From positions 1 through 64,000 of IMG/VR virus record IMGVR_UViG_3300027833_000025: a DNA stretch of 64,000 nt; one strand, given 5' to 3'. Under the pieces are notes generated by a model. It did not search any database. It saw only the letters and a list, made by a program, of their open reading frames with translations, and was not told the DNA's origin. Position numbers and translations under genes: made by a program. The DNA is from a virus. Below, piece after piece: positions 12,748 through 63,252 of this stretch. Numbering within the stretch: the first letter of the stretch is position 1; every line of letters begins with the position of its first letter.

Positions 12748-12996
12748 GTGAAGAAACGAACCAAATCATTATTGCAAGAAATTAACAATATTGCACCAAA
12801 CAGAGATAACGCACAATTAATAGAAACGCGCGGAGTAAATGTATTGAGTAGTATGATCAATCTTCTTGAAATGATAGAACAGACGTATGATGCTGAGATA
12901 GCGCAAGATTTGCAAAAGCGCATGATCTTGGATCTTAAAAATAGAGAACCTGTTCGTTTTGCACGAGGTGTAAAAAAACTACGAGACAATAAATGA
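12748..12996 (+). CDS. Hypothetical late protein
   Basis: GTG start with GGAG RBS. Confidence 0.7.
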   Translation: MKKRTKSLLQEINNIAPNRDNAQLIETRGVNVLSSMINLLEMIEQTYDAEIAQDLQKRMILDLKNREPVRFARGVKKLRDNK

Positions 12997-14225
12997 AAAT
13001 TTCAGAAATTATTAATATTACAGGAAGAAAGAAGCGCGAAGACAGAGATGCACGAAAACGCAGATTGAAACATGGCGCTGATTTATACGATGTTGATGTA
13101 TCCAAGTTAGGTGAATCAACACTATCAGAAAGTCGCATACAGCATATAGAAGACTTAATATTCTTCCAAGGTAGTAGCGGTGCTATGAGAGCAGTTGCAG
13201 CCCTTCGCAGTATGTCAGGAGATGATCATAAAGCAGTAACGCTTAAATGGGATGGAAGTCCTGCAATGGTATTTGGTCGTGATCAAAACGGTGAGTTTAT
13301 ATTCACAGACAAGTCAGGTTTTGTAGCAGTGAAAACAGATGGTAAAGCAAAGAGTGCTGAACAACTACAAGATATTATGCTTAATCGTAGTGGTGGAATA
13401 AACCGAGAAGACCCAGAGCGTGTAGCATTCGCCAAACAGTTATCAAGTCTGTTTCCTATATATGAAAAAACAGTACCAACAGACTTTAGAGGATTTTTTA
13501 AAGGTGATCTATTATATCAATCAACACCACCCGTTGTTGGAAATAACTATGTTTTCAAGCCACAGATTGTTGATTATGCAGTAGATGTAGAAAGCGACTT
13601 AGGCAAACGCATTGGCGCAAGTAAATCTGGTATTGTAATACATAGAGAAGAAGATGCTAATGGAAAAGAAGGTCCTTTCACGCATATGGAAATGTTTAAC
13701 AACCAAAAAGATGTATTGGTAGTACCAAGTGTGACAACCGAAAAACCTGTTGAAGTTGATACAAGCGCAATTGATCAACTTGAGCAAATAATTAAAAAGA
13801 ATGCGGCGGGCGTAGATGAGTTATTAAATGATAACACACTAACTACGCAGAAAATGAAGGCATTGCCAGAATTATTATACGCATATATGAATAGTAAAGT
13901 AGACACTGGTCTAACTAATTTAGGTGCAGATTTTCCAACTTGGTTAGAGAATAGAAAGCAAGTGTCAGATAAAATGAAAGTCAAAGTATTAGAATATATT
14001 GGTCAACATAAAGTTGCATTCGTTGCATTATGGAATGTAGTAGCAGCAGTTATGGCTACGAAAGACGATATCATTGCTAAATTCGACAGTCAAGGTGGTC
14101 AAGTGAAGCAAAGCATTAATGGTCAACCTGGAGGCGAGGGGTATGTACTTGCTAGTCCTAAAGGTGATATGAAGTTAGTACCAAGAGCAACGTTTAGTGC
14201 AGCAAATAGAGGGGCGGTAAGATAA
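12993..14225 (+). CDS. ATP-dependent ligase-superfamily (RNA-ligase-like) protein with CTS-like leader
   Basis: KWDG (motif I), FKGDLL (III), EGYV (IV), MKLV (V); N-terminus MKISEII. Confidence 0.65.
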   Translation: MKISEIINITGRKKREDRDARKRRLKHGADLYDVDVSKLGESTLSESRIQHIEDLIFFQGSSGAMRAVAALRSMSGDDHKAVTLKWDGSPAMVFGRDQNGEFIFTDKSGFVAVKTDGKAKSAEQLQDIMLNRSGGINREDPERVAFAKQLSSLFPIYEKTVPTDFRGFFKGDLLYQSTPPVVGNNYVFKPQIVDYAVDVESDLGKRIGASKSGIVIHREEDANGKEGPFTHMEMFNNQKDVLVVPSVTTEKPVEVDTSAIDQLEQIIKKNAAGVDELLNDNTLTTQKMKALPELLYAYMNSKVDTGLTNLGADFPTWLENRKQVSDKMKVKVLEYIGQHKVAFVALWNVVAAVMATKDDIIAKFDSQGGQVKQSINGQPGGEGYVLASPKGDMKLVPRATFSAANRGAVR

Positions 14226-15775: not shown

Positions 15776-16063
15776 ATGATAATTAATGAAGCATACAATA
15801 CAGTTATTTCCGAATCAAAAGTAGTTTTTGCTAAGAGAGGAAATAAGGTTGTTAAGAAATTTAGATGTACAGTTGGAAAGAGAAAAGGCAGAGTTGTGGC
15901 AAGTCCACAGCAATGCGCAGCACCAATTGATATTAAAAAACGTTTCTTAATGAAAAAAACAAAAGCGTCGAAAGGTGCTAGGATGACAAAGAAAGCGCAA
16001 AAAACAAAGCGAGTCAATCCAACGAGTAAAATCGTAAAACAATTAAATAAGTCGAGAAGATAA
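15776..16063 (+). CDS. Highly basic small protein with CTS-like leader (putative internal head protein)
   Basis: MIINEAYNTVISE then Lys/Arg-rich body. Confidence 0.65.
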   Translation: MIINEAYNTVISESKVVFAKRGNKVVKKFRCTVGKRKGRVVASPQQCAAPIDIKKRFLMKKTKASKGARMTKKAQKTKRVNPTSKIVKQLNKSRR

Positions 16064-17745: not shown

Positions 17746-18543
17746 ATGATTTTACACGATTTGCAAGAAGACAAATTTACCAAGTTAACAAAAGCCTTGA
17801 ATGAAGTTTTTGATATTAAATTCAATTTCAGCATGGAGACAAAAAAACTTGTCAAGATTCAAGAAACAACTAACTCTCGTATTACAGCATTGCGCGAATC
17901 TGGCGTAGATGTTAGTGCGAAAGATTTCCAAAAATTACTTCTAATATCAGAAGGTATCAATATGGTACTGAACGAAGTAGAAAAAACAACTCAGGATACT
18001 AACATGAAATTACAAGAAAATCAAGATTTAGATCAAGCAGAAGTATTGCTTGCTGCTAAACAAATGGCAGACGATTTACAGAAAATGGCTGAAAACTTAG
18101 CAAGTATGCAAGTTGAGGACCTTATGTCTATCACTAATGCTATGAAAGAAGAAGTAGGTACAGCAGAAGCAGAAGCATTCACAATGTCAGCAGAAGCAGC
18201 AATTGGCGCAGCACTAGACGCAGTTAAATCTGCTAATAGTGAAGTTACTGATGCATTATTAGTTGCACAGGGACAGCCTGTTGAAAGCGGTGGATCAATG
18301 GATACATTAGATACTGATGTCAGTGACGAGTTAGGCATGGGCGATGATTTCGCTGATGATGAGTTAGAAATTGGTGATGACTTTGAAGGCGTTGATGCAG
18401 CATCAGGTGCAGAAAATCCAATTGGTCGCGAAATGAAAGAAGATAAGTATCTTTCTGCAATGCGCATGGTTAAAGAAGCACAACAAGACGGAAAAATCAG
18501 CAAAGATTTGCTAAAGCAAGCATTTGCTACGTTGAGAAACTAA
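17746..18543 (+). CDS. Putative prohead scaffold/core protein
   Basis: Acidic, Ala/Glu-rich helices, LxE sites, CTS-like MILHDLQE. Confidence 0.55.
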   Translation: MILHDLQEDKFTKLTKALNEVFDIKFNFSMETKKLVKIQETTNSRITALRESGVDVSAKDFQKLLLISEGINMVLNEVEKTTQDTNMKLQENQDLDQAEVLLAAKQMADDLQKMAENLASMQVEDLMSITNAMKEEVGTAEAEAFTMSAEAAIGAALDAVKSANSEVTDALLVAQGQPVESGGSMDTLDTDVSDELGMGDDFADDELEIGDDFEGVDAASGAENPIGREMKEDKYLSAMRMVKEAQQDGKISKDLLKQAFATLRN

Positions 18544-18544
18544 A

Positions 18545-18862
18545 ATGCGTTTTTCTGAGATTGTCGTTGAAGACACAAGTGATATTAAATCAATTATTAT
18601 TGATATTATTTCAGTGGCAGCAGCAGAAGGTATGTCTAGTTTGAGTATTGATACATTGGCAAAATCTCTTGCAGAAATGGGAAATGAGATAGATCATTCA
18701 ATATTGTTTGATATACTAGATTCTATTCCCATAGTTGATAATATTAAAGATGATGTCATCTTTTTTGGCAGAGATGGAAAATCATCTTCTGAACCAAGTC
18801 GTGATCAACAAGATAAGCGCATAGATAAAATGGCAAGAAAGCAAGTTAAAAAGGACATATAA
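18545..18862 (+). CDS. Hypothetical protein with CTS-like leader
   Basis: MRFSEIVVE. Confidence 0.65.
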   Translation: MRFSEIVVEDTSDIKSIIIDIISVAAAEGMSSLSIDTLAKSLAEMGNEIDHSILFDILDSIPIVDNIKDDVIFFGRDGKSSSEPSRDQQDKRIDKMARKQVKKDI

Positions 18863-38880: not shown

Positions 38881-39402
38881 ATGGAACAAACAGACATCAT
38901 TGCCCAATTAGGTAAGAACATAAAGAGAAATTCGGCATTGGAAACATTGATGCAAATTGATGGTGTATTAGAATCATTAAACGTATATGCATACAAGAAC
39001 TGGATTGAAGGTGAGATTGTAGATGGTCCACAAATTGAGCGTTATTGGGTAACAGTGACTTTGTTATATCCACATAAGATGATGCCAGATCCAGATGGTG
39101 CAGATAGATTGCTTAAAAATGGCTGCAAAGTATTCTATGCAAAAGACACACTTACCACCGCAGCAAAGTTAATTGAGCCAGAAGATTCTGAGATTGATCC
39201 AGAACGTCCAAACAAGCGTAGAGCAAAGAAGATACTACGACCAGTATGGTTGGTTACACTTGAAGTCCCACGTGGTTTAATAGACACCATTGAATCAAGT
39301 CGTGTGAAAGTAGATGATATGCAGTTTGACAGTGCAGCAGTTGAACAAGCATACGATGATAATCTAGGAGCAAGTGATGAAATCATATCAGACGACACTT
39401 AA
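38881..39402 (+). CDS. Hypothetical late protein
   Basis: 173 aa, AGGAG RBS. Confidence 0.75.
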   Translation: MEQTDIIAQLGKNIKRNSALETLMQIDGVLESLNVYAYKNWIEGEIVDGPQIERYWVTVTLLYPHKMMPDPDGADRLLKNGCKVFYAKDTLTTAAKLIEPEDSEIDPERPNKRRAKKILRPVWLVTLEVPRGLIDTIESSRVKVDDMQFDSAAVEQAYDDNLGASDEIISDDT

Positions 39403-39874
39403 TGAAGCAGTGCAACACAATGATCTACGTGGTCTTGTGAGCAATGTAGTTAGTATTGATCAATACAAAAGTAAGATTGGATATGATAAGAACATCGTTG
39501 TAGTCGCAATTGAAGTAAATCACATCGAAGCAGCGTCAGACCTTAGTCAATTCATCGAAACTGGACACAAAGATGCACTAGATGTTGATGTATCAGTAGG
39601 ACCCACTCCAGAAGGAAAATATACAGTGTTTATTGAATACACACGTAGTAATTTTTTATTTAGGTTAATTGATGTTATGTTACAAGATATTTTAAATATT
39701 GACAATGAAGTAGAATCTTGGAAATTTGTAGCATACAAGGACACTATTCCAAAAGATTGGACTTCGGAAGAGTTTGAACAATCAGTACACACATCCAGTT
39801 ATGAATATGTTATTGCACATGACCCAGATGCTAAAGTGATATCAGAAAGAATTAAGTTTTTGAATAGTTACTAA
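39374..39874 (+). CDS. Hypothetical protein with T4 CTS-like leader
   Basis: [11 protein letters not shown] resembles T4 internal-protein leader MKTYQEFIAE. Confidence 0.7.
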
Positions 39875-40095
39875 TGTCTAAAGAAGATACAATAAAAACA
39901 ACTGGAATTATAACAGAGTGTCTACCAAACGCTAAATTCAGAGTTAAGTTAGACATGAATGAACATGTTCTATTAGCGCACTTGAGTGGAAAGATGCGAA
40001 AAATGAATATTAATGTACTTCTTGCAGATCAGGTTGAGGTAGAAATATCACCTTATGATTTGACAAAATGCAGAATCATATATAGGAACAAATAA
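39874..40095 (+). CDS. infA: Translation initiation factor IF-1
   Basis: MSKED.I...G...[11 protein letters not shown]...LAHLSGKMR...SPYDLTK.RI.YR. Confidence 0.95.
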
Positions 40096-40565: not shown

Positions 40566-40962
40566 TTGTTCATCTGTACCAAAAGTAGTTACATATAAAT
40601 CAGCGCCCATAGATAAGCCTGATTTAATATTGCCAGATACTTCTGTATTAGCATTGCGTGACGTAGATTTTATTATAGTCACAATAGATAATATGGATGA
40701 AGTAATGAAAGAGTTACAAAAAGTAAATAGTAATATTGCATTATTTGCATTAACTGATATTGGATATGAAAATCTAAGTCTGAATAATTCTGAAATATTA
40801 AAATTGTTATCACAGCAGCAATCTATTATAGCAGCATACAAATCATACTATGAAGGTGTTCAAATCAATATTGATAATCACAATGATAATCGTGATGTAA
40901 CTATTCCCGTCCCTGTAGAGCCAGGAATTACTGATAAAGTACTAAAGATATTTAAAGACTAG
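40495..40962 (+). CDS. Outer-membrane lipoprotein spanin (Rz1-like); start may be 40531
   Basis: Lipobox FLSSC, Pro-rich segment after the Cys. Confidence 0.6.
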   Translation: MQLKRVKRIAVVMTLLIPTIFLSSCSSVPKVVTYKSAPIDKPDLILPDTSVLALRDVDFIIVTIDNMDEVMKELQKVNSNIALFALTDIGYENLSLNNSEILKLLSQQQSIIAAYKSYYEGVQINIDNHNDNRDVTIPVPVEPGITDKVLKIFKD

Positions 40963-41122
40963 CAAAAAATCAGTTCATATATAGTGTCATATAATTCATA
41001 TAAAAAAATAAGTAAATACAACTACACGAGAAGTGTGATTGTTCGTTGTCGAGCAATGAAATATATGGTAACGATGTTGAGGCAGTTTATAGGAACAAAC
41101 TAATTCAGCAGTATGAAATAAT

Positions 41123-41815
41123 ATGAAACAAACAAATAGTAACCCTTGGGACATTTTAAATATAGCGACATCTTCATCCCAAGAAGAAATAAAGCAAGCA
41201 TTTAAAAAACTTGCAATGAAGCATCACCCAGATAGAGGCGGCAAATCAGTCGAATTTAATCGTGTTGTTCAAGCATACGAACAACTACGAAAGAGTACTA
41301 TCGTGCCTATTATTGTAACTTCACATACACATTTAGTAAATGTAAAATTAACAATCAAGCAGCAGATAGAAGGTGTAGATGATTACATTGAGACAGATAC
41401 TGGTGAGATATTGAAAGTAGCAATACCAGCAGGATCTAGGTTAGATGATAAGTATAAAGTAAACACTCCTATTGACAAATATATTGTTAATATCAAAGAA
41501 TTATCACATAAAGTATTGACAAGACAGGGATTATCGCTTATAATGAATATCACAATTGATATCGTAGATGCGATGCAAGGAAGTGTAATCCCAATTATAG
41601 GTCCATGTGACGAGCATTTAGAAATAGAAATCCCAGCGGGAGCGCAAGATGGGTTAGTCATTCTAGTACCTAACAAGGGCTTGATGAATAAACTAACAAA
41701 GAAGCGTGCAGGATTGCACATTATTGTGAATACTGAAATCCCAAAATTAGATACTGATACTAGTATCGATCAATTTATATTAAGGTTAAGAGAATGTCAG
41801 AAATTGAAAACATAG
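41123..41815 (+). CDS. DnaJ/CbpA-like co-chaperone
   Basis: J domain with HHPD; DnaJ C-terminal IPAG repeats; no Zn finger. Confidence 0.88.
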   Translation: MKQTNSNPWDILNIATSSSQEEIKQAFKKLAMKHHPDRGGKSVEFNRVVQAYEQLRKSTIVPIIVTSHTHLVNVKLTIKQQIEGVDDYIETDTGEILKVAIPAGSRLDDKYKVNTPIDKYIVNIKELSHKVLTRQGLSLIMNITIDIVDAMQGSVIPIIGPCDEHLEIEIPAGAQDGLVILVPNKGLMNKLTKKRAGLHIIVNTEIPKLDTDTSIDQFILRLRECQKLKT

Positions 41816-44070: not shown

Positions 44071-45488
44071 GTGAATATGAAAATAATTCAGCAATTGTAG
44101 TTGAATATAAATCAAAGTATTACAAAGTATTAGACAAAACAACGAAAGGACAGTTACAAGCAGCATGGGATATGAATGATTCAAGTAAAGATGATGATAT
44201 GATTGAAGTAACATATCCATCTGGTATGTCTGTTCATGCAGTACTCATTGTAAAAACAACAGCATCTACCGATACCGATTACCGCAATCTTGGTGGTAAA
44301 TGCTTTTCCAAATATAATAAAAAGTGCAATCATGTTTATTTTGAGTTTAATGATAAGACATCAGCGTTTATCATTGAAGGTGCACGACTTGCTGCATACT
44401 CATTCAGTAAGTACAAGACAGATACAGAAAGTACTACGTTTACATATATTCATGGTACAGATTCAGTCAAAACCATTGAAGAAAGTGTGTTCTTGGCACG
44501 TGACCTAGTTACTGAGCCGGGTAACGAATTGTATCCAGAAGAGTACGCAGATCGTATCAACCAAATGTTAACACCTTTGGGTGTAACAGTAAAGATTATG
44601 CATGAGAAATTTCTACGTAAACTAGGATTTGATTTGCTATTGAGTGTTGGTGAAGGTTCTGATCGTGACAGTTATGTTGTTGTGATGGAACACATGAATG
44701 CTGATACAGACGCAGCACCACTTGCTCTAGTAGGAAAGGGTGTTACATTTGATTCTGGCGGCATCTCACTAAAGCCTGGAAAGGGTATGGGAGATATGAA
44801 GACTGACATGGGTGGTTCAGCAGCAGTAGTTGGTGCTATGCACGCAATTGCTTCTCAGAATGTAAAAGCCAATGTAGTAGGAATCGTAGGACTTGTAGAA
44901 AACATGCCGTCTGGTGGTGCAACTCGCCCAGGTGATGTTATCGGGTCATTAAATGGTCAAACAGTCGAGAACTTGAATACAGATGCAGAAGGTCGCTTGG
45001 TACTTGCAGATATTCTAACGTATGTACAAAATGAATACAAGCCAGCACAGATTATTGATTTAGCAACATTAACTGGTGCTATTTTGGTAACACTAGGTCA
45101 CGAAGCAGCAGGTTTGTTTAGTAATTCTACTGGGTTCGCTAGTCATATTTCATCAGTTGGTTCAGATGCAGGAGAGAATTATTTCCGTATGCCAATGGGT
45201 AAAGTATGGAATAAGATGATAGATTCCCCTATTGCTGATATGCAGAACATTGGCGGTCCGTATGGTGGTTCCACCACAGCAGCAGAGTTCTTGTATCGGT
45301 TCGTTGATAGTGATACTCCGTGGGCACATTTGGATATTGCAGGAATGGCATGGGCTGATAGTCCTAAAGATACCACACCTAAAGGTGCAGTAGGATTTGG
45401 TGTACGTACCCTGTACGATATCGCCTGTGGTTTAAATCACGATCCAGCAACAACTCACTGGGCTATCGATCTAGATATGCAATACTAA
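44067..45488 (+). CDS. pepA: Leucyl aminopeptidase (M17)
   Basis: GKGVTFDSGG, NTDAEGRL, DLATLTGA, WAHLDIAG. Confidence 0.93.
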   Translation: MSEYENNSAIVVEYKSKYYKVLDKTTKGQLQAAWDMNDSSKDDDMIEVTYPSGMSVHAVLIVKTTASTDTDYRNLGGKCFSKYNKKCNHVYFEFNDKTSAFIIEGARLAAYSFSKYKTDTESTTFTYIHGTDSVKTIEESVFLARDLVTEPGNELYPEEYADRINQMLTPLGVTVKIMHEKFLRKLGFDLLLSVGEGSDRDSYVVVMEHMNADTDAAPLALVGKGVTFDSGGISLKPGKGMGDMKTDMGGSAAVVGAMHAIASQNVKANVVGIVGLVENMPSGGATRPGDVIGSLNGQTVENLNTDAEGRLVLADILTYVQNEYKPAQIIDLATLTGAILVTLGHEAAGLFSNSTGFASHISSVGSDAGENYFRMPMGKVWNKMIDSPIADMQNIGGPYGGSTTAAEFLYRFVDSDTPWAHLDIAGMAWADSPKDTTPKGAVGFGVRTLYDIACGLNHDPATTHWAIDLDMQY

Positions 45489-52915: not shown

Positions 52916-52923
52916 CATAAATA
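52916..52923 (+). promoter_or_regulatory. T4-type late promoter
   Basis: CATAAATA heading the 52954-57366 operon. Confidence 0.7.
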
Positions 52924-52953: not shown

Positions 52954-53178
52954 ATGTCATTAGAAGAAGAAATTGAACAATTAAAGAAATTAGCAGGCAT
53001 ATACGATAAGGATAAAGATATCGTAGATGGTGATGATGAATCTAATATATCAATAACAGGTTCAGAAAAGCGTAAAATTGAACGAGATAATAATATACAG
53101 CCAGGAACACCAGAATGGTTTAAGTTATGGTTTTCGTTGCCAAAAATGACAGGCGAAAAGCCGTTTGAAAAGGAATAG
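52954..53178 (+). CDS. Small late protein with LKKLAGI motif
   Basis: EIEQLKKLAGI; IQPGTPEWFKLWF. Confidence 0.7.
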   Translation: MSLEEEIEQLKKLAGIYDKDKDIVDGDDESNISITGSEKRKIERDNNIQPGTPEWFKLWFSLPKMTGEKPFEKE

Positions 53179-53181
53179 ATT

Positions 53182-54402
53182 ATGAGATTAAATGAATTTG
53201 ATGATTCACTGAGTAGAGCAGACTTAGATGCGTTAGAAGTTTTTGCAGACAAAGTATTTGGTAAAGTAGGCATTGATGTAAACTTCACACGACACTTCTT
53301 AGATAGAGTAAATGACGAGCGCAACATTAAGCAGATCACCAAAGGTGAATTGACTCGCTTGTTCAAGCAAGAAGCAAAACGTTGGGCAAAGCCTATTGCT
53401 AGATTGGGACCAGATGCAGAAGGTACTATGAAGGATTTACAGACACAGATAAATCTACCATTTGTATTAGTATGGGATCATAATAATCAAGAACTTGATT
53501 TGATTGCTAAGACTGTTATGCGCAAAAAAGATTTTAAGACTCATAACACAGAATTTCCAGTAGAATCAATCACCGAAGGCGACTCTGCTCCGGGCGCTGG
53601 TGCTATACATCATTCAGAAATTGCTCCAACTCTACAGAATCTAGAACAGAAATTGGGTATACCTTTAATGAAAAATGCACTAGGTAGTGTTGGCAAAAAA
53701 GAGTTTAGTGGAGACATTGATATTGCAGTGCAACTAACTAAAGAAGAGCAAGATGATTTTCAAAAGAAACTACAATCAACACCTGGACTTACATTTGTGC
53801 AAAAAACAGGTGTATTCATTACAAGTGCCGATATTGTTGGATACGATGATAGTAAGCAAGCAGATGGAAAGCAACGCACTGGCAAAGTACAAATTGACTT
53901 TATGCCGGGCGACATAGACTTCATGAAGCACTACTATCATTCTCCACACTCAAAAGAGATGAGCCAAGATGGTAAAAGTAGTAACTACAAAGGTGTTCAC
54001 CGTAATCTTATGGTTAGTGCAATGATTGACAAAATTGACGTTAAATCAAGTGATGAAACTACACCAGATGGTAGACCACTTGAAATAGAACGCTGGATGT
54101 TCTCACCGACACAGGGCATGGTGCGTGTAATTCGTAGACCAGTAGAAAAGAAGAATGGTACTGGTTATACAAAAGCAAATACTAATGAAGTAATCAAGGG
54201 TCCATTTAAAAATCCAGCAGAGTGGGCAAAAATATTAAAGTTAGACAATGCTGATGATCTATACAGTTTTGAATCGTTATATGCTGCTGCTAAGAAAAAT
54301 TACCCATCAGATTTAGTTCAGAAGGTAGTTAGTGATTTTAAATCTAATCCTACTATTATAAAGCAAGGTATACCAACCGAATTAGAGGAACAAGTAAAAT
54401 GA
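53182..54402 (+). CDS. Two-module protein: BECR-like domain + Pol-beta-family nucleotidyltransferase
   Basis: FTRHFLDR...KTVMRK; ITE-G junction; GSVGKK..SGDID...QIDF. Confidence 0.65.
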   Translation: MRLNEFDDSLSRADLDALEVFADKVFGKVGIDVNFTRHFLDRVNDERNIKQITKGELTRLFKQEAKRWAKPIARLGPDAEGTMKDLQTQINLPFVLVWDHNNQELDLIAKTVMRKKDFKTHNTEFPVESITEGDSAPGAGAIHHSEIAPTLQNLEQKLGIPLMKNALGSVGKKEFSGDIDIAVQLTKEEQDDFQKKLQSTPGLTFVQKTGVFITSADIVGYDDSKQADGKQRTGKVQIDFMPGDIDFMKHYYHSPHSKEMSQDGKSSNYKGVHRNLMVSAMIDKIDVKSSDETTPDGRPLEIERWMFSPTQGMVRVIRRPVEKKNGTGYTKANTNEVIKGPFKNPAEWAKILKLDNADDLYSFESLYAAAKKNYPSDLVQKVVSDFKSNPTIIKQGIPTELEEQVK

Positions 54403-54839
54403 GAATACAAGATTTATATGAAGCAAAAAAGAAGAAAACAAAAAGATTAGATCCTGAATGTTGGGATGGTTATAAAAAAGATGGTACAAAAATAGACAAT
54501 GGTGTTCGTGTAAACAATTGTGTCATAGAGGTTAGTGAAGACGAATACACATACGAAGGTGAATTAAGTATGTTGTATGATGAATTAGAAATCTTAGACG
54601 AAGCAGAATACCAAGGTCGTAAAGTTAAACTAGGCAAGCCTTCACGAGGTGATGTTAAGAAGTTCAAAGTGTATGTAAAGAATGACAAAGGTAACGTAGT
54701 TAAAGTTAACTTTGGTGATCCTGATATGCGCATTAGAAAGTCTAATCCAGCAGCAAGAAAGAGTTTTCGTGCACGTCATAAGTGTGCTGATAAAAAAGAT
54801 AGAACCACAGCAGGATATTGGTCTTGTAAAAAATGGTAA
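54399..54839 (+). CDS. Modular basic head protein
   Basis: MRIQDLYE; CW.GYK...NC module; LDE-AEYQGRKV...YWSCKKW module. Confidence 0.65.
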   Translation: MRIQDLYEAKKKKTKRLDPECWDGYKKDGTKIDNGVRVNNCVIEVSEDEYTYEGELSMLYDELEILDEAEYQGRKVKLGKPSRGDVKKFKVYVKNDKGNVVKVNFGDPDMRIRKSNPAARKSFRARHKCADKKDRTTAGYWSCKKW

Positions 54840-54847
54840 TATAGTAT

Positions 54848-55846
54848 ATGAAAATTAGTGAAATAGTAGAACCAACGAAACTAACATTACCTACGATAGA
54901 AGTAGGTGATGAAGTGCTGGTTGGTAAATTCAAGAACAGTAAAGCAACTGTAAAGGGGTTTACAAAAGATGCTTACAATCAACCTGTAATGAAGACTACA
55001 AAGGGTGATAAGAAGGTATTCAAAGATAGACATAGTAAATTGGTACAAGAAGATCAATCGCCAGCATTGCCAGTTACATCAGTAAAAAATTTATATCATG
55101 TTGGCACATTAGATGCGTCAAAGAAGCGTGATGGATATGAGGGCGCAGGGTTGAGCGTAAGTACCCATCCAGATGATTGGAAAAAGATTGCTAGAGGACA
55201 TGTAACTGGGGATACATATAGTGCTACTAAAGATGGAAACAGATTCCTAAATGCACATGCACTTACAGATTCGCATGACGAAGTAATCAAACAATGGGCA
55301 ATTGAAAATGGATACTTAGAACAGCAAGAAACTGTTACAGTATGTTACTATGATGATGAAATGGAAGATGACCTTTGTTCAACTTTCAATTCAATGGCAG
55401 ATGCAGAATATGAATATGATGGTGAATTAGAACACTATGACGTTGAAGTAGACAAGGGTGGTATTGTTCCAACTGATAAACTGAAAAAAGCAGCAAGACA
55501 GAAACGCATGGAATCAACTGGCGTACTAGACTTTGTTCTACCCTTATATGCAGAGCAAGCAGGACTTGATGGGGTATGGTGGCAAGATACGCTAGATGTA
55601 AGTAGATATTCAGCACCTCGTGGTGTTATTGTTCCTAGCAAAATTGACTCTTGGGAGTTTAAAGTAAACGAATCAATAGTAGAAGATGGTAAGATTGTGC
55701 AAGGTGTTAATACCACAGTAGATGTAAAGCCGGGTGAAACTGAGCGACAAGCAGCAAAGTTCGGAAACAAAATGACAAAGAAAGGTCCGCCTATATTGGG
55801 TGGCAGTTCATCTCATAAATTATTTAATATGGGACTAGGAGAATAA
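54848..55846 (+). CDS. Three-module protein with central ART-like domain
   Basis: MKISEIVE; LYHVG...GLSVS...GLDGV; junctions VQE and VNE/IVE. Confidence 0.55.
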   Translation: MKISEIVEPTKLTLPTIEVGDEVLVGKFKNSKATVKGFTKDAYNQPVMKTTKGDKKVFKDRHSKLVQEDQSPALPVTSVKNLYHVGTLDASKKRDGYEGAGLSVSTHPDDWKKIARGHVTGDTYSATKDGNRFLNAHALTDSHDEVIKQWAIENGYLEQQETVTVCYYDDEMEDDLCSTFNSMADAEYEYDGELEHYDVEVDKGGIVPTDKLKKAARQKRMESTGVLDFVLPLYAEQAGLDGVWWQDTLDVSRYSAPRGVIVPSKIDSWEFKVNESIVEDGKIVQGVNTTVDVKPGETERQAAKFGNKMTKKGPPILGGSSSHKLFNMGLGE

Positions 55847-55848
55847 TA

Positions 55849-56979
55849 ATGAAAATTAATGAAGTTGTTACCATTAAAGAAGATGCTATGGAAATAGCGA
55901 AGACATTGATGTCATTGTCTGGTGAAGAGATAGTAGCATTAAGCGCAGCACTGACTATGACAGTTCCCGTATTGAAAGGATTGTTTAAAACTGGTAAAGG
56001 CATCATGAAAGTGAAGCGTATGATGGATAGAGCAAGTGTGCGTATCGCTAATGGCATTGTTAAAGAAGATCGTATTAATGAAATAGAGTATTCATCAGAT
56101 GTTCAAAAAGATGATATGTCAAAGTATGATCTAGATGACATGATAGGATCAACTGAATCAACTGGTAAGAAGATAAACGGATATGAGATTCATACAATTG
56201 ATGAAGGTGATGTATCATTCTTGGTAAAAGAGCCATACGGTGACGGATTTTTAGGTGAGTTACGATTAAAACCTGAACACAAGTATGAAGGAATGCATAA
56301 GAGTGTTGTGTTCTTTGATGAAGTGATTCAAGGAAAAGGTATAGCACCATTATTGTATAAAATGGCGATAGTTGATTATGGTCATACTATTGTTAGTGAT
56401 TATAAGCAGTCCAAAGGTAGCAAGACCTTATGGGAACGATTAGCAAAGATGTCTGGTGTGTTTGTGTATGGATGGAATCCAAGAGCAAAGGGTGATAAAG
56501 AATTTTTTCAATGGGATCCTACTGAAGACTCCGACAGTGTAATTTATCATGGTGATTCATCAACTGATGTATTAAGAGATGAATTAGATGCATTAATGAA
56601 AGATATTGGTAGTCGTAAGCAATCAGGTGAATTGTCAGCAGAACAAGCACAGGTAGAGTGGAACGAAGGTAAAAAAGAAATCAGTGCTGAATTAAAAGAT
56701 GCAGACTTAGTTAGATACAATGACATTAGACTAATTGCAACAGCAGATAATAACTTAGACGAGTCTATAGGAGCATTAATGGGTATGATATTACCAACAC
56801 ACGCAGCAATGTACAAAAAAGCAGCAGCAATGATGTCAGAATTTCATGATGAATATCCATCATATGGATTGAACAAACTTGCAGCATTAGTATCAAGACG
56901 CACCGCAAAAGATTTTGACAGACGTGCTTTGGTACAAACTTACAAAAAGCAGTATCCTTCATCAAATATAGAAGAATGA
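55849..56979 (+). CDS. Modular protein with GNAT-like domain
   Basis: MKINEV; QGKGIA..LY...SD..QS..S..LW..L. Confidence 0.65.
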   Translation: MKINEVVTIKEDAMEIAKTLMSLSGEEIVALSAALTMTVPVLKGLFKTGKGIMKVKRMMDRASVRIANGIVKEDRINEIEYSSDVQKDDMSKYDLDDMIGSTESTGKKINGYEIHTIDEGDVSFLVKEPYGDGFLGELRLKPEHKYEGMHKSVVFFDEVIQGKGIAPLLYKMAIVDYGHTIVSDYKQSKGSKTLWERLAKMSGVFVYGWNPRAKGDKEFFQWDPTEDSDSVIYHGDSSTDVLRDELDALMKDIGSRKQSGELSAEQAQVEWNEGKKEISAELKDADLVRYNDIRLIATADNNLDESIGALMGMILPTHAAMYKKAAAMMSEFHDEYPSYGLNKLAALVSRRTAKDFDRRALVQTYKKQYPSSNIEE

Positions 56980-56985
56980 GTAATA

Positions 56986-57366
56986 ATGGATATTACAGTA
57001 CGTAGACTAACGCCTGCTGATGTTTATAAACTGCAAAGTATAGTAAAGGAAGATATAGCAAAAAACGCATATATCACTTGGCCCTTTACTAGAGAGATAG
57101 CATTGTCGTTTATTACTGAATACAACACATGGGGTATTTGGCTCAATGATGGTATACTTGCTGGTGCGATTGAGATAAAAGATACGCATGAAACTGCATA
57201 TTTGGTTGCTACAATATATCAAAATAATGGTATTGCTACAGCAGCAATTGAGCAGATAAAAGAAATATATCATTATAGACAATTATGGTGCAAGATAAAT
57301 CCAAATAATAAAGCGAGTTTAAAAGTTGCAAACAAAACACATATGAGAGTTCAGTTTTATAGATAA
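56986..57366 (+). CDS. RimJ/RimL-type GNAT acetyltransferase
   Basis: YQNNGIAT, NPNNKASLKV. Confidence 0.8.
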   Translation: MDITVRRLTPADVYKLQSIVKEDIAKNAYITWPFTREIALSFITEYNTWGIWLNDGILAGAIEIKDTHETAYLVATIYQNNGIATAAIEQIKEIYHYRQLWCKINPNNKASLKVANKTHMRVQFYR

Positions 57367-57388
57367 ATAGTAATGCAGGAGGCAGATT

Positions 57389-57643
57389 ATGGCGAACAAG
57401 AAAGTAGAGAATCATGATATCGAAGATTTACATGGTCCCATGAATAGTGTTGCAAAAGAAGATGCAAAAATATGGACAGGTCTAGAAAATAAAAAAGAAT
57501 CAGAATATGAATTACATGAACATAGGACAGTAGTCGCAAAAAAGCAGAAAGCGAAGAAATCTAGTAAAAAGCAAGATAGGCGAATATCGAAGCAATTAGT
57601 CAAACAAACTGACAATGGACAAAGTGCATTATTGCATAAATAA
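57389..57643 (+). CDS. Small basic late protein
   Basis: GATAAATA 57362-57369, AGGAGG RBS. Confidence 0.65.
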   Translation: MANKKVENHDIEDLHGPMNSVAKEDAKIWTGLENKKESEYELHEHRTVVAKKQKAKKSSKKQDRRISKQLVKQTDNGQSALLHK

Positions 57644-57647
57644 TATT

Positions 57648-57857
57648 ATGAAAATAAATGAAATTATAAGTGAAGAGGCAGCAACAGGTGATACGATGTC
57701 TGGCAATTTTGGTGCTGTTTCGTTCCCAATGACACCTGGAACTACGAAAATGGCTGCTAGAAAGGCAGTTGATCCTAAAGGACATTTAGGTTTAGGTAAA
57801 TCAAATAAATCTTTTAAAGGATTTAGACAATACAAGTTGGATAAAAAAGATAAATGA
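57648..57857 (+). CDS. Small protein with CTS-like leader (leaderless late start)
   Basis: CATAAATA 57635-57642 five nt before ATG; MKINEIISE. Confidence 0.65.
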   Translation: MKINEIISEEAATGDTMSGNFGAVSFPMTPGTTKMAARKAVDPKGHLGLGKSNKSFKGFRQYKLDKKDK

Positions 57858-59035
57858 AATTCGAACAATTAAATGAGAAGTCAACATTACCATTATCACA
57901 AGAAGTTTCTAACTTACTTGGACGTGGTGATACAGTTTATATTCAAATTGATGATGCTAATGTAGCAGAAATAGTAGGAGTCAATCTTGACAAAGATAAG
58001 CGAACCGTAATTGTAGGATTTGGTAAATCTAGAAAATCTATCCCAGTACATAACGACACATACAGAATTGATGATAGCGAGGGCTATAACGTAATTCGTA
58101 AAATTAAAGAATCAAACATACAGGAAATTCCCATGACAAACAAAAAAATTAACGAAGGCGCATTTGGCGACTTAGCCAACGTAGCAGAACGTGATCACGA
58201 AGTGCAAATGGCACGTGCTGATCTATATAAGATAGCAAAATATGCTATGAAACTTCATGATATGTTAAAATCTGTATCAGAAGTAGAAGGTATTCAAGGT
58301 TGGCAGCAAGCTAAAATTACTATAGCAGCAGACGATATATCAAGTGTGTACCATGCAATGGATTACGATATGATGGATCTAGATGCAGACTATGACGTAG
58401 ATGAAGGAATTTCGTCTAGACCAGGCTTGAGTGCTCCATTGAAGCGTACCATTGAAAATTTACCACATTTGGTAGGCGATAAAGTTGCTGATGAACGATG
58501 GGAAGCGAAAAGAGCAGCAAAGAAAGCAGCAGTCGAAAAGCGTGGTTTAAATGCATTATTTGCTGGTGCTGGAGATACCAACTCTGTTATCACACGTCAG
58601 CGTACAGAAATGGACAATGAAGGTAGCGCAGGCAACATATATAAAGATGGTGTTGATCAAGGTATGTATGAAATTGACACAAACGCAGATACTTTATTTT
58701 TTAATAATCAAGGGTTTGATTCGTTTGAAGATGTAGCAGCAGCATTGGGTGGTGAATTCTCTTGGGATGAATCTGCAAAATTAAACAATGTGACCGAAGC
58801 AACTGGAACACAAGAAGGAGATCGTATGTACAAAGTTGTACACGCAAAGAAAAATCCAATTGAAGTTTCAGCATCAACTAGTTACGAAGCAGCAACAAAA
58901 GCAGCAGCGATTTGGAAATTAAAATCAACAGCAGGTATTTCCCCGTATCTATTAGATATGAAACATGTTTCAGAACAAGCATCATCTATGTTTGAATCTG
59001 CTAGAAAGAAAGCAAAATTAAAAGCGAAAAAATAA
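57854..59035 (+). CDS. Multi-module head protein
   Basis: MKFEQLNE; modules bounded by IKE/INE/VDE/VTE/VSE. Confidence 0.65.
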   Translation: MKFEQLNEKSTLPLSQEVSNLLGRGDTVYIQIDDANVAEIVGVNLDKDKRTVIVGFGKSRKSIPVHNDTYRIDDSEGYNVIRKIKESNIQEIPMTNKKINEGAFGDLANVAERDHEVQMARADLYKIAKYAMKLHDMLKSVSEVEGIQGWQQAKITIAADDISSVYHAMDYDMMDLDADYDVDEGISSRPGLSAPLKRTIENLPHLVGDKVADERWEAKRAAKKAAVEKRGLNALFAGAGDTNSVITRQRTEMDNEGSAGNIYKDGVDQGMYEIDTNADTLFFNNQGFDSFEDVAAALGGEFSWDESAKLNNVTEATGTQEGDRMYKVVHAKKNPIEVSASTSYEAATKAAAIWKLKSTAGISPYLLDMKHVSEQASSMFESARKKAKLKAKK

Positions 59036-59199
59036 TGTTTGAACCATCACTAGAAAGTAGAAATGAATGTAATCAATGCGGTGGAGTTTGTCATGGCAAA
59101 GCCGCAAGATATCGCACACTAACAATATTGGGCGAAATACCAAGACGAATCAAAGTGTGTGATTCATGTCAGTGCAAGAAGTGTATACCAGAAGACTAA
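59035..59199 (+). CDS. 54-aa Cys-rich zinc-binding peptide (not in ORF track)
   Basis: TAATG coupling; CNQCGGVCH...CDSCQCKKC. Confidence 0.6.
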   Translation: MFEPSLESRNECNQCGGVCHGKAARYRTLTILGEIPRRIKVCDSCQCKKCIPED

Positions 59200-59209
59200 G
59201 AGAACTATT

Positions 59210-60211
59210 ATGAAAGCAACTCAATTTTTACAAGAAGGATCCCTGACCAATCAAGAATTACGCAAGTATGGTGGTAAGCGGTTGGATTTATTCATAGCAA
59301 AGATTCAATCAGGTTCTCCATTTGTAAAAGCAGGAGAAACTGAACCTTCTATTGTGTTAGTTAATGACCCAGATATTATTGAGCGTTTAAAGAATAACGA
59401 TATCCCTGCGATGTTTGATATGGAAGAAGGCGGTTCAATTCGTCTTACTCAATTACAAAAAACTAAAGAATTCGGTAGCACAGGTAGTAAGAAAGACACC
59501 TCTGAAAAGCAAGAACATGGTTTAATAGAAATAATCAATAATAATCCAGGTTGTATGATTAGCAAAATGGGTATTACCGCACAATCAGCGCGTGGCAATG
59601 AAGGTTTGAATGCCATGAAGAAAGAACGATACATTGATATATTCATAACTGACAGTAAAGGAAAAGATCACGGTATCTCTATGAAAGGAACAACTGCTCC
59701 ATCATTAGGTGGCGGTGGCGCAGCAGGAATCAATTCTGTAGCCCCAGATTTATTCAAAAAGATATTCGCAAGAATTGAACAGTTCATGAAGAATGAATTA
59801 CAATTAACCAATGGTGATATTATTGCATCAAAGCATATCCCAGATATATTTGTTCGTGTACCAGATGATTATGTGGAAGTCATAATGAAGGGTAACGAAG
59901 CAATGGGTGGCCCTATTGATTATATGTATGTAGGTCCTATGGATGCTATCGGAGAAGTTGATAATAATAATATGTTGAATTTAAATGGAAAATTCTATAC
60001 AATAGAAGAGTACATTAATAAAATCGGTAATTTCTACTTTAGAATACGTAAGCGTGACATAGCAGATAATAAGACAGTTCAAGTGGCGTATGATGAAAAG
60101 AATACACTCGGTCTGCCTAAGTTATTAAAAAATCCTGAAACTCATAAAAACAATTTAAGACTAGTTGTTACTAATAAACCTTCTACAACAGGTATTATCT
60201 TAGACTTGTAA
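59210..60211 (+). CDS. PD-(D/E)XK nuclease-like protein with CTS-like leader
   Basis: MKATQFLQE; EKQE helix, YIDIFI...GISMK. Confidence 0.55.
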   Translation: MKATQFLQEGSLTNQELRKYGGKRLDLFIAKIQSGSPFVKAGETEPSIVLVNDPDIIERLKNNDIPAMFDMEEGGSIRLTQLQKTKEFGSTGSKKDTSEKQEHGLIEIINNNPGCMISKMGITAQSARGNEGLNAMKKERYIDIFITDSKGKDHGISMKGTTAPSLGGGGAAGINSVAPDLFKKIFARIEQFMKNELQLTNGDIIASKHIPDIFVRVPDDYVEVIMKGNEAMGGPIDYMYVGPMDAIGEVDNNNMLNLNGKFYTIEEYINKIGNFYFRIRKRDIADNKTVQVAYDEKNTLGLPKLLKNPETHKNNLRLVVTNKPSTTGIILDL

Positions 60212-60274
60212 TATGTCACGATTGCACTACTCAGTGCAATTATCATTACCTTTGTAAATAACCTAAAAAATCAA

Positions 60275-60303
60275 TTGACAACTCTGTGTTTATAGTGTAT
60301 TAT
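60275..60303 (+). promoter_or_regulatory. Sigma70-type promoter of the dsbA-like/polymerase operon
   Basis: TTGACA-17-TATTAT; hairpin ATTGCACT/AGTGCAAT upstream at 60221-60240. Confidence 0.7.
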
Positions 60304-60609: not shown

Positions 60610-63252
60610 ATGAGTTATGTCGATGGATTAATTGATCGTGACAGAGACATCATTCATGTGGTTGAACGTGTGAATGGTGTCCGTCGTTACTTAGAATATC
60701 CTGCACATCATACATTGTACTATCCGTCACCGAAGGGAAAATATACTTCTATCTTTGGTGACACGTTAGAGCGAGTAGTGTGTAATTCTGGTCGCAAGTT
60801 TGCCGCAGAGAAAAAGTTACACCATCGCAAAGGTTTATTTGAGAGCGACACAAACCCAGTGTTTCGTTGTCTCGCAGATAATTATCTTGATGCTGAACCA
60901 CCAACACTCAATGTGGCATTATTCGATATTGAAACAGACTTTAATAGAGAGATAGGTTATGCACCACCAGATGATCCGTTTAACGCGATCACTGCTATAT
61001 CAGTGCATATGAGTTGGATGAAGCAAACAGTGTGTTTGGTAATCAAGCCTAGTTCAATGACTGAGGAAGATGCACAAGCGATTGTTGATAGGTTTGACAA
61101 TGCTATCTTGTGTGATAGCGAAGAAGCAATGTTGACTTCATTCTTAGAGTTGATAGACGATGCCGATATATTGACAGGTTGGAATAGTGAAGGATTTGAT
61201 ATACCATACACAGTAAATCGTGTATCGCGTGTATTGAGCAAGAGTCACACACGACAGTTCTGTCTCTGGGATAAATTTCCGAAGCAAAAAGAAGTTGTTA
61301 AATTCGGCAAAGAAACACAAACTTATGACTTGATTGGTCGTATACATCTTGATTATCTTGAATTGTATCGTAAATACACATATCATGAAATGCACTCATA
61401 CTCACTTGATGCTATCTGTGAATATGAACTAGGTGATCAAAAAGTTGAATACGAAGGAACACTTGATCAGTTATACAATAATGACTTTTTTAAGTTCATT
61501 CAGTATAGTATACAAGATGTTGACTTGATGGTTCGGTTAGATGAAAAACTTCAATTTATTGATTTGGCAAATCTTATTGCACACTCAAACACCGTACTAT
61601 TACCAACTACCATGGGATCAGTGGCACAGATTGATCAGGCAATAATCAATGAAGCACATTCACAAGGTTTAATTGTGCCTGACAAGAAGCGTGGTGAAAA
61701 ACCTATTGCAGCAGCAGGCGCGTATGTAGCAACACCGATCAAAGGTGTTCATAGAGACATCGCATCAATTGACTTGAATTCATTATACCCATCTATCTTA
61801 CGTGCATGTAATATGTCTACTGAGACAGTTATCGGTCAGATAAAGCACGTGCACACTAGAAAGATGCTTGAAGATCATGACTTTAACGTACCGAAGGCGT
61901 GGGAAGGTAGATTCGCTTGTATAGAATATGAAATGGTCATGGAAAAGAATACCACATCATTACTTACACTTGAATTTGTAGACGGAACTGCTCATACCTT
62001 ATCTGGTGCTGAGATATACGAACTTGTATTTGAAAGCGATCAGCCTTGGATACTTACTGCTAATGGTACATTGTTCACACACGAAAAGAAAGGAATTGTA
62101 CCTAAATTACTTGAAACTTGGTATGCTGAACGTAAAATATTACAAACAAAAGCACGAGATGCGCGTGATGAAGGTGGTGATAAGTTTGCATATTGGGATA
62201 AGCGACAGTTAGTTAAAAAGATTTTGCTTAACTCATTGTATGGTGCTTTATTGAATCCTGGAAGTCGTTTCTTTGACGAGCGATTAGGACAGTCTACTAC
62301 CTTAACAGGTCGTTGTATTGCACGACATATGGCAGCATCATTAAATGAAGTCATTACTGGTGAGTATGATCACAAAGGTAAATCCATTGTATATGGTGAT
62401 ACTGACTCTACTTATTTTAGTGCATATCCTATTTTAAAAGATCAGATTGCAGCAGGTTCAATTAATTGGGATAATGACACAATGATTTCATATTATGATG
62501 CAGTGTGTGGAGAAGTAGATACTACGTTTGCAAAATTCATGATGGACACCTTTCATACCACCCATGAGTTAGGAGTAATTATTGCAGCAGCACGTGAAGT
62601 GGTGGCTACTTCGGGTCTGTTTGTAATAAAGAAGCGTTATGCACTTATGGTGATTGATAACGAAGGCAAGCGCGAAGATGTAGAAGGTAAGCCTGGCAAG
62701 ATCAAAGCAATGGGACTTGACTTGAAGCGAAGTGATACACCTAAGTTCATGCAGGAGTTCTTGAAAGAGATTCTTGGAATGGTACTAACTGGTATTGAAG
62801 AATCCATAGTAATAGATCGTATTGTGAAATTTCGCAGCGAGTTTAGAGCAATGGATAGTTGGCAGAAGGGTACACCTAAACGTGTAAACAACTTGACTAA
62901 TCATACAAAGAAATATAATAAGATTGGCAAGTGTGGCGTTGGTCATGCAATGGCAGCAATCAATTGGAATCGTTTGAAGAAGATAAACGATGATGCATAT
63001 AGCATGGATATCACTGATGGTATGAAAACTATTGTATGTAAGTTGAAGAAAAACCCAATGGGTATGACTAGTATTGGTTATCCGACTGACGCGAAGCGTA
63101 TACCTGATTGGTTTAAAGAACTACCATTTGACGACGGCTTAATGGAAGAAACTATCATCACAAAGAAGATTGAAAATCTAATCGGTGTTTTGAAATGGGA
63201 TTTACAATCAGCAGCAGCGAATAATACATTCTCTGATTTATTTGAGTTTTGA
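60610..63252 (+). CDS. Family B DNA polymerase (gp43-like)
   Basis: Exo DIET, WNSEGFD, YSIQD; pol DLNSLYPS, KILLNSLYG, YGDTDS, KKRY. Confidence 0.96.
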   Translation: MSYVDGLIDRDRDIIHVVERVNGVRRYLEYPAHHTLYYPSPKGKYTSIFGDTLERVVCNSGRKFAAEKKLHHRKGLFESDTNPVFRCLADNYLDAEPPTLNVALFDIETDFNREIGYAPPDDPFNAITAISVHMSWMKQTVCLVIKPSSMTEEDAQAIVDRFDNAILCDSEEAMLTSFLELIDDADILTGWNSEGFDIPYTVNRVSRVLSKSHTRQFCLWDKFPKQKEVVKFGKETQTYDLIGRIHLDYLELYRKYTYHEMHSYSLDAICEYELGDQKVEYEGTLDQLYNNDFFKFIQYSIQDVDLMVRLDEKLQFIDLANLIAHSNTVLLPTTMGSVAQIDQAIINEAHSQGLIVPDKKRGEKPIAAAGAYVATPIKGVHRDIASIDLNSLYPSILRACNMSTETVIGQIKHVHTRKMLEDHDFNVPKAWEGRFACIEYEMVMEKNTTSLLTLEFVDGTAHTLSGAEIYELVFESDQPWILTANGTLFTHEKKGIVPKLLETWYAERKILQTKARDARDEGGDKFAYWDKRQLVKKILLNSLYGALLNPGSRFFDERLGQSTTLTGRCIARHMAASLNEVITGEYDHKGKSIVYGDTDSTYFSAYPILKDQIAAGSINWDNDTMISYYDAVCGEVDTTFAKFMMDTFHTTHELGVIIAAAREVVATSGLFVIKKRYALMVIDNEGKREDVEGKPGKIKAMGLDLKRSDTPKFMQEFLKEILGMVLTGIEESIVIDRIVKFRSEFRAMDSWQKGTPKRVNNLTNHTKKYNKIGKCGVGHAMAAINWNRLKKINDDAYSMDITDGMKTIVCKLKKNPMGMTSIGYPTDAKRIPDWFKELPFDDGLMEETIITKKIENLIGVLKWDLQSAAANNTFSDLFEF

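Follow-up and report, generated by a model that had tools for sequence, protein, structure and literature searches.

A T4-like N-terminal leader shared by tandem modular proteins beside the polymerase gene of an uncultured jumbo phage

The window analysed here is the first 64 kb of a linear 97.8-kb contig from IMG/VR, derived from an uncultured aquatic jumbo myovirus; at 52954-60211, directly 5' of the family B DNA polymerase gene (polB, 60610-63252), it carries an array of genes in which unrelated proteins begin with the same short N-terminal leader. This leader, of 8-11 residues and consensus M-[KR]-[LI]-x-E-[LI]-x-E, is real, specific and conserved; in the alignments it appears detachable, and within multi-module leader proteins a protease-type motif, [ILV]xE, is enriched where unrelated modules meet. 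The overall explanation that we favour, and hold to be rather better than even, is that of a T4-type capsid-targeting leader on modular cargo that is cut by protease and injected.

CheckV rates the contig 27% complete, so the whole genome would measure about 360 kb; the plus strand carries almost every gene up to 77 kb. The polymerase is nearest, at 43-49% identity, to those of the jumbo myoviruses Rak2/121Q, Atu_ph07, Phosso and Vibrio 2.275.O. Relatives were fetched from IMG/VR with polB as anchor and fall into two clades, one at 93-98% polB identity and a sister clade at 56-59%. Genes are named by their start coordinate, and a slash in a motif marks the position after its Glu.

Specificity, detachability and T4 likeness of the leader

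In both clades the 6-9 genes directly 5' of polB all begin with the leader consensus, and in the window seven leader genes stand in tandem between 53182 and 60211 (53182, 54399, 54848, 55849, 57648, 57854 and 59210). The polB-anchored relatives yielded 56 distinct leaders, on unrelated proteins of 58-813 amino acids (aa); position 8 is Glu in 28 of the 56, although our regular expression made no demand there. That expression, devised post hoc after the data had been seen, matches 10 of 144 open reading frames (ORFs) of at least 60 aa, against 0.39 expected from column shuffling. To avoid circularity, a position-specific scoring matrix (PSSM) trained on 35 leaders from sister-clade contigs only was used as an independent test. 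Its nine best of 156 window ORFs are 54399, 57648, 53182, 54848, 12993, 17746, 18545, 55849 and 57854, and six of these nine score above 5, compared with none of 626 internal Met positions. Chance or composition as the source of the leader is ruled out by the column shuffles, the independent PSSM and the internal-Met control. Its amino acids are kept while its codons vary, which shows conservation at the protein level and rules out a nucleotide-level element. Two genes, 59210 and 39377, carry a second subtype that resembles the T4 internal proteins (IPs), M-K-x-[TSY]-Q-..-L-x-E, and is missed by the PSSM in both; membership of 59210 is supported by its family alignment.

A sequence-only reading made before this analysis had listed about 13 leader genes and taken them to be late genes. 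Every N-terminus on its list is present, those of 39377, 57648 and 59210 being in-frame ATGs a few codons within longer GTG/ATG ORFs. The start of 14225 does not fit the leader and this gene was dropped, while 15776 has the start as listed and is only a marginal member. An ORF at 31303, not on that list, matched the post hoc expression and was discarded at a PSSM score of -1.6. As that reading predicted, the leader is confined to a gene subset behind T4-type late boxes and occurs on none of the replication or early-looking ORFs, being absent from helicases, primase-type genes, ribonucleotide reductase, polB and the minus-strand ORFs at 77-98 kb.

Boxes of the form [GTC]ATAAATA lie 20-55 nucleotides (nt) 5' of 12748, 15419, 17746, 45552, 46471, 49615, 50163, 52954 and 57389, most of them within the small part of the sequence that lies between genes. 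In G001, a 233-kb sister-clade contig, 20 of 28 such boxes stand within 80 nt upstream of gene starts, including those of the head operon and of tail-like genes. The array has one box at its start and a second at 57362; a hairpin closes it, and beyond this lies a strong sigma70-like promoter that serves the polB unit. Late expression of its genes is likely, because of the late-type boxes, the end hairpin and the separate polB promoter. In two genomes the distance between a late-type box and the ATG of the leader gene behind it is merely 4-5 nt (window 57635-57650; G001:C1:197589-197603), which may reflect leaderless late mRNAs or chance.

The capsid targeting sequence (CTS) and the internal proteins of T4 were reportedly described by Mullaney & Black in 1996. 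In the T4 record, IPII and IPIII start MKTYQEFIAE/A and Alt starts MELITELFDE/D, while the vertex protein gp24 starts MAKINELLRE/S and the scaffold gp22 MLKEQLIAE/A. The window consensus is nearly the gp24 propeptide, and the leader closes with [LI]-x-E, the consensus at which gp21 cleaves, after which comes a small or acidic residue. These T4 peptides are taken off after the Glu by gp21, and the first 10 residues of IPIII are sufficient for packaging (PMC9958956, PMC9026906, PMC3012670). A gp21-family Peptidase_S77 is present in the relatives G001, PA5oct, Melnitz, G010, G016 and G021. G001 has the T4 gene order, with the portal, a 68-aa leader ORF, a 301-aa ORF, Peptidase_S77 (E=1e-22; G001:C1:123044-123682), the scaffold and gp23 (E=4e-80). 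Scanning the whole of G001 gave just four clear leader genes; the array near polB is truncated there by the contig end.

Judged from family alignments, the leader is a detachable add-on, and homologues that lack it start, in two module families, immediately behind its last Glu. In the 59210 family (103 matches) full-length members read leader-E/A-G-L-S, whereas a 353-aa class begins M-A-T-L-S at precisely that point (M-R-A-F-E-I-F-N-E/A-G... against leaderless M-A-T...). Within a 240-aa, core-only class of the same family, some members have a leader of ten residues, of T4-like type, before A-G-S-S-A-E-R-Q-E, and the majority begin M-A-G-A-S-A-E-R-Q-E (M-K-T-F-R-Q-Y-I-T-E/A-G-S-S against M-A-G-A-S). 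For the central module of 54848, with 619 matches, the leader stands immediately before the domain in 46 of the best 120, and the others begin at the domain. In 12993 the DUF6267 domain (PF19782) begins at aa 49, right after LSE/S, and cyanophage homologues are without the 48-residue extension. As a separate observation, the cytidylyltransferase encoded by gene 183 of cyanophage P-TIM40 (L054:2704-3777) has a leader-like start, M-R-F-L-D-F-I-K-E, and then a low-complexity linker, while its P-HM1 homologue has the enzyme domain at its very start; cultured cyanophages therefore seem to follow this add-on logic too.

Homologues also connect leader proteins with the virion. One block of PA5oct holds homologues of three of them, namely gp229 (59210), gp231 (the C module of 53182) and gp237 (17746). 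Both gp231 and gp237 are annotated 'structural protein, ESI-MS/MS' (electrospray ionization tandem mass spectrometry), an annotation carried by 10 of the 13 genes listed for gp226-gp238 (MK797984; PMC7318152). The start of gp237, MFLKDVKITE, is leader-like, and gp230, directly 5' of gp231, starts MRLDEIQ and is virion-detected by the same annotation. In the window, 12748, 17746 and 18545 match PHROGs annotated as virion structural protein.

Module exchange, junction motifs and module identities

Near-identical genomes differ by indels of whole modules inside leader proteins, with flanks that are 94-100% identical. In 53182, aa 8-129, between MRLNEFD and ITE/G, are missing from relative L007; this module shares 62% identity with a free-standing 150-aa protein from Melnitz, a T4-like phage, and that protein has an IP-like leader start of its own. 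In 54848, aa 69-279, bounded by VQE/D and IVE/D, are missing from relative L005, and the AlphaFold model of this protein has a confident fold only from ~70 to ~277, in agreement with those limits. Relative to its L007 orthologue, 55849 gains a GNAT-like module, and in 57854 the middle part after INE/G is swapped in L007. In P0172 the module order is permuted, with the 54848-type C module first behind the leader and the ADP-ribosyltransferase (ART) module later, and its leader aligns with an internal junction of 54848. Content and order thus differ between close relatives, as the sequence-only reading had anticipated for a set of swappable polyproteins. Sites of the kind that it placed at module junctions, [ILV]xE, are there as well: ITE/G in 53182, VQE/D and IVE/D in 54848, INE/G and VTE/A in 57854, LDE/S in 55849 and LSE/S in 12993.

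Its proposal that domain boundaries coincide with [ILV]xE beyond chance was borne out by an all-against-all comparison of 60 leader proteins, which gave 59 non-redundant homology breakpoints. With a site required within 1 aa, 15 of the 59 fall on [ILV]xE, against 4.4 expected (p<0.0005). None of the control motifs [ILV]x[DQ], [AGST]xE, [ILV]xK and [FYWM]xE is enriched at these breakpoints; [AGST]xE, which is of the S/A/G-x-E type, occurs at 8 of 59 against 5.2 expected (p=0.14). In the sister clade, the end modules are common to three orthologous proteins (726-813 aa), which differ in their number of unrelated internal cassettes (58-294 aa); each cassette closes with (K/E)-Q-G-V-x-E and then A, G, E or D. 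Compared with other ORFs, leader proteins have an 8-fold higher density of GVxE and a 21-fold higher density of QGVxE. The signal at the junctions is genuine and fits processing of multi-cassette proteins by a prohead protease. The idea that junctions are full internal copies of the leader does not hold in general; it is true for one case, 54848 against P0172. A post hoc observation is that 53182 and 54848 have [ILV]xE solely in the leader, at junctions and at the extreme C-terminus, with none in ~700 interior residues where ~11 would be expected, a restriction that the other leader proteins do not show.

For the modules themselves, Pfam and PHROGs gave almost no matches for the array proteins, Pfam gave none for the sister-clade polyproteins, and sequence searches of the PDB gave none that were significant. 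No Pfam or PHROGs match to a peptidase or MuF domain was found in the array or in the sister-clade polyproteins. The model of 59210 (predicted local distance difference test, pLDDT, 90) has HinP1I as its best Foldseek match (E=1e-3, probability 0.97), followed by MspI and HhaI. In its nuclease-like core, ~aa 100-333, residues E139, D143, S157 and K159 are invariant in 39 sequences. We assign this core, with moderate confidence, to the HinP1I/MspI-like PD-(D/E)xK restriction-endonuclease fold. The 13 best VIA matches of the central module of 54848 are all ART, RES or diphtheria-toxin-type chains, at Z 5.0-7.7 and so under the Z 8 caution line; one of them is a domain of a cyanophage pre-ejectosome protein. 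A Y-H-x-G strand that includes H84 and G86 is invariant in the family, and Foldseek with the 54848 model returned nothing clear, so that aa 69-279 are given here as a candidate ART fold, again a moderate assignment (Z 7.7). The insert of 55849 has GNAT neighbours by language model (score 0.95) and by structure (template modelling score, TM, 0.58-0.63), with no Pfam match. In 53182 the C module has no Pfam or PDB sequence match; its translation contains the motif G-S-x(9-13)-D-x-D, its neighbours in the language-model atlas are named nucleotidyltransferase, and PF01909 is found on 33% of one cluster. For 12993, PF19782 (DUF6267) scores above the gathering threshold (E=1.8e-36, aa 49-405).

The computational tests put forward by the sequence-only reading all turned out as it expected, and it is supported in part. 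It had predicted nucleotidyltransferase, ART-like, GNAT, ligase and nuclease effectors that would act ahead of any phage gene expression. A nuclease fold, DUF6267 and a Pfam GNAT were found; the supposed ligase is only DUF6267 with a KxDG-like motif, and the Pfam GNAT gene, 56986, has no leader. Its nucleotidyltransferase and ART calls are tentative, the former drawing on motif and language-model neighbours and the latter on a Z of 7.7 that lies below the safe threshold.

Two further features of the modules were observed. A mini-module C-W-x-G-[YF]-[RK]-K recurs after the leader, in 54399-54839 and in leader proteins of L011, L012, L015 and L016/L017, and is often paired with a C-terminal phrog_7595 module that also occurs in Pelagibacter podophages. 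Internal signals of the twin-arginine translocation (Tat) type lie 4-5 residues after VxE in two sister-clade leader proteins, the polyprotein L027:6232-8670 (aa ~128-155) and L012:6379-7287 (aa ~86-118), both with R-R-G-F-L, a hydrophobic stretch and an A-x-A end; these Tat-like motifs could export only if the upstream part were cut away.

Capsid targeting weighed against other explanations

We infer targeting, packaging, cleavage, injection and effector roles for the leader proteins, in the following order of events. The genes would be transcribed, probably late, and the leader would bring each protein into the scaffolding core of the assembling head. There a prohead protease of the gp21 family (Peptidase_S77) would cut after the Glu of [ILV]-x-E and release the mature protein inside the head; in T4, replacing this Glu with Asp blocks cutting. 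That the shared N-terminus is a T4-type capsid (prohead-core) targeting propeptide, acting in targeting and then removed, is in our judgement likely. Multi-module proteins would hold extra sites, [ILV]xE or, in the sister clade, QGVxE, precisely at the boundaries between unrelated modules, so that one leader could load several cassettes that are separated in the head; for cleavage at these internal junctions we put the chances slightly short of even. Once freed, the proteins would pass out of the head along with the DNA and be active in the cell just infected, with a repertoire that may comprise an ART fold, a HinP1I/MspI-like nuclease fold, GNAT, a Pol-beta-type nucleotidyltransferase, DUF6267 and several proteins of no assigned kind. 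Injection with effector roles strikes us as an evenly balanced proposition.

Several observations weigh against this sequence of events. At the junctions, only about a quarter of breakpoints fall on an [ILV]xE site, [ILV]xE is not depleted overall within leader proteins (15.0 vs 15.8 per 1000), 59210 has none between its two domains, and full leader-like motifs are not enriched internally (1.14 vs 1.01 PSSM hits per 1000 residues). The 59210 nuclease and 54848 ART fold assignments are themselves moderate. No gp21 protease, gp23 capsid or other head gene was found on the 97.8-kb contig, which is 27% complete, so the head module must sit on the missing part of the genome, and the link to head and protease depends on relatives with polB identity of 58% or less. 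A correspondence between presence of the leader and a gp21-type head had to be abandoned: leaderless members of the 59210 family also occur in T4-like contigs with gp21 and gp23, and the leader is therefore not simply tied to head type. The support from virion proteomics comes from PA5oct homologues, outside the window clade, and among these gp229, the leaderless homologue of 59210, went undetected in virions, while gp231 was detected though it has no leader of its own.

The leader could be a prohead-targeting propeptide on proteins that are structural or scaffolding contents of the head (inner-body, DNA-condensing or assembly proteins) and are not injected, the internal [ILV]xE sites serving degradation and clearing as in T4 gp22, gp67 and gp68. 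The T4 core proteins gp22 and gp24 do bear the same kind of propeptide, gp22, gp67 and gp68 are broken down to peptides (PMC9958956), the 68-aa ORF adjoining the G001 portal gene has a leader too, and many array members are small or without a recognisable enzyme domain. We nevertheless regard this explanation as unlikely, since enzyme folds or motifs occur in several modules, the array is distant from the head genes, and content varies from genome to genome in a manner typical of arms-race cargo and not of assembly factors.

Two explanations that dispense with the capsid fare worse. A motif that tags proteins for a ClpA/ClpP-DnaJ-aminopeptidase module, or that forms an N-terminal helix favouring translation initiation without a Shine-Dalgarno sequence, would accord with the DnaJ, ClpA-like ATPase and M17 aminopeptidase encoded on the contig and with the poor ribosome-binding sites and A/U-rich first codons of several leader genes. 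It is very improbable given that the conserved Glu and Leu/Ile positions use varied codons, that the motif has the consensus for gp21 cleavage at its end and agrees with four propeptides of T4, that leaderless homologues begin exactly after the Glu, that homologues are virion proteins, and that the same [ILV]xE stands at junctions. T4-type genomes shuffle genes in hyperplastic regions, and the ends of the module indels are sharp, with short repeats such as E-D on either side of the 54848 insertion; start and junction motifs might accordingly be mere scars of exchange at a conserved short sequence, the peptide having no function. We give this little credence, because the motif is kept at the protein level, with different codons, between clades of 56-59% polB identity, is present on hundreds of environmental homologues of unrelated modules, and has no counterpart in controls such as [ILV]x[DQ], which are not enriched at breakpoints.

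A wider form of the capsid-targeting explanation can be put forward only tentatively, as we think it less probable than its contrary: leader and [ILV]xE/QGVxE cassettes may constitute a general plug-and-play delivery system of aquatic T4-superfamily phages, in which any module placed behind the leader or between sites is injected, and cleavage may unmask N-terminal signals (Tat, to the host periplasm). Were this so, the leader would be a handle for mining injected counter-defence and takeover proteins from metagenomes.

Known systems and neighbouring features

The leader system joins the capsid-targeting and internal-protein theme of T4 with that of polyvalent proteins; both ideas are precedented, as are processed ejection proteins of the phiKZ type. 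It resembles the T4 CTS with IPI, IPII, IPIII and Alt in that a short N-terminal propeptide ending [LI]-x-E is found on otherwise unrelated proteins, that the lineage has a gp21-family protease, that gene content is hypervariable, and that a putative ART-fold enzyme is among the cargo. The CTS has been proposed as an evolutionary device for loading diverse proteins (PMC9026906, PMC3012670, PMC9958956). It differs from the T4 case in a consensus that is nearest to gp24 and not to the IP leader, in arrays of 6-9 tandem genes adjoining polB in an uncultured jumbo-phage clade, known here from sequence alone, and in a cargo that is mostly enzyme-sized and multi-module, its module junctions bearing extra sites of the protease type.

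Phages and conjugative elements also encode polyvalent proteins (Iyer, Burroughs, Anand, de Souza, Aravind 2017; PMC5512222). ART, nuclease, acetyltransferase and further conflict domains are joined in these multi-domain proteins, for which transport together with the DNA and processing into individual domains have been predicted. Leader proteins can likewise hold at least two unrelated conflict-type domains in one polypeptide, in variable combinations. Processing of polyvalent proteins is ascribed to embedded peptidase domains such as MPTase (PMC5512222), whereas none was found in the leader proteins, which have a prohead-protease motif at junctions; entry would be through the N-terminal leader here and through MuF-, relaxase- or portal-associated domains there. 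The inner-body and ejection proteins of phiKZ, 201phi2-1 and SPN3US, which gp175/gp245 process, also belong to jumbo phages in which many head proteins are cut after Glu at several sites, and their propeptides carry redundant cleavage sites; no shared short leader on them is described in these sources (PMC5694885, PMC7411985, PMC9026906). Their motif is S/A/G-x-E and their lineage a different one, whereas breakpoints in the window clade are not enriched in [AGST]xE. In PA5oct gp226-gp238 the modules are separate genes, some of them leaderless, while in the window clade they are fused behind leaders; the parts of PMC7318152 consulted do not discuss a leader or processing. What is new is the distinct consensus, the tandem arrays by polB in an uncultured jumbo clade, the enzyme-sized cargo, cassettes delimited by protease-type sites without an embedded peptidase, and the leader as a mining tag.

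Injected phage proteins work before any phage gene expression, and are therefore prime candidates for action against restriction, CRISPR and abortive infection. To our knowledge there are very few examples beyond T4, P1, N4 and the phiKZ group. If the leader marks head cargo, it would provide a simple sequence tag for uncultured phages, hundreds of homologues with a leader being already apparent in two module families; it would show one targeting peptide loading several unrelated cassettes via junction protease sites; and it would offer natural pairs with and without leader in which to probe what packaging adds to the role of an enzyme. Leader variants are also suggested for protein packaging in T4-like vectors.

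Table 1. Genes and elements of the leader array, and leader genes elsewhere in the window.
Feature	Position	Strand	Remarks
T4-type late-promoter-like box CATAAATA	52916..52923	+	31 nt 5' of the gene that opens the array; in G001 the head and tail operons are preceded by the same box family
74-aa ORF without leader	52954..53178	+	kept in close relatives
406-aa leader protein, leader MRLNEF	53182..54402	+	insert aa 8-129; ITE/G at 130-132; Pol-beta-type nucleotidyltransferase-like module aa 133-406
146-aa leader protein, MRIQDLYE	54399..54839	+	CWxGYKK mini-module and C-terminal phrog_7595 module; not in L007-type relatives
332-aa leader protein, MKISEIVE/P	54848..55846	+	small N module; VQE/D; candidate ART-fold module aa 69-279; IVE/D; C module
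376-aa leader protein, MKINEV..IKE/D	55849..56979	+	GNAT-like module ~aa 100-290, not in the L007 orthologue
126-aa GNAT acetyltransferase without leader	56986..57366	+	PF13302, E=1e-9
Second late-type box GATAAATA	57362..57369	+	20 nt 5' of 57389
84-aa basic ORF without leader	57389..57643	+	conserved
69-aa leader protein, MKINEIISE/E	57648..57857	+	small leader protein kept in both clades
393-aa leader protein, MKFEQLNE/K	57854..59035	+	N module ends INE/G; middle replaced in L007; C module resumes near VTE/A
54-aa Cys-rich ORF without leader	59035..59199	+	
333-aa leader protein, MKATQFLQE/G	59210..60211	+	N domain and PD-(D/E)xK restriction-endonuclease-like core
Hairpin, then strong sigma70-like promoter TTGACA-17-TATTAT	60221..60303	+	divides the leader array from the 84-aa gene and polB unit
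410-aa leader protein outside the array	12993..14225	+	leader and basic stretch ending LSE/S (aa 45-47), then DUF6267 aa 49-405; late box at 12717 upstream
265-aa leader protein, MILHDLQE/D	17746..18543	+	behind TATAAATA box at 17706; homologous to PA5oct gp237
105-aa leader protein, MRFSEIVVE/D	18545..18862	+	phrog_15050 'virion structural protein'
165-aa ORF, T4-IP-like start, then A	39377..39874	+	membership probable
95-aa ORF, MIINEA..ISE/S	15776..16063	+	marginal member

Elsewhere on the contig, a proteostasis block occupies 39874-45488 of the window and encodes an IF-1 homologue (PF01176), DnaJ (PF00226 and PF01556), a ClpA-like ATPase (phrog_4871, E=8e-231) and an M17 leucyl aminopeptidase (PF00883, E=6e-116). 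The start of a ClpP-like ORF, judged by eye only, lies on the minus strand at the far end of the contig (97418-97798).

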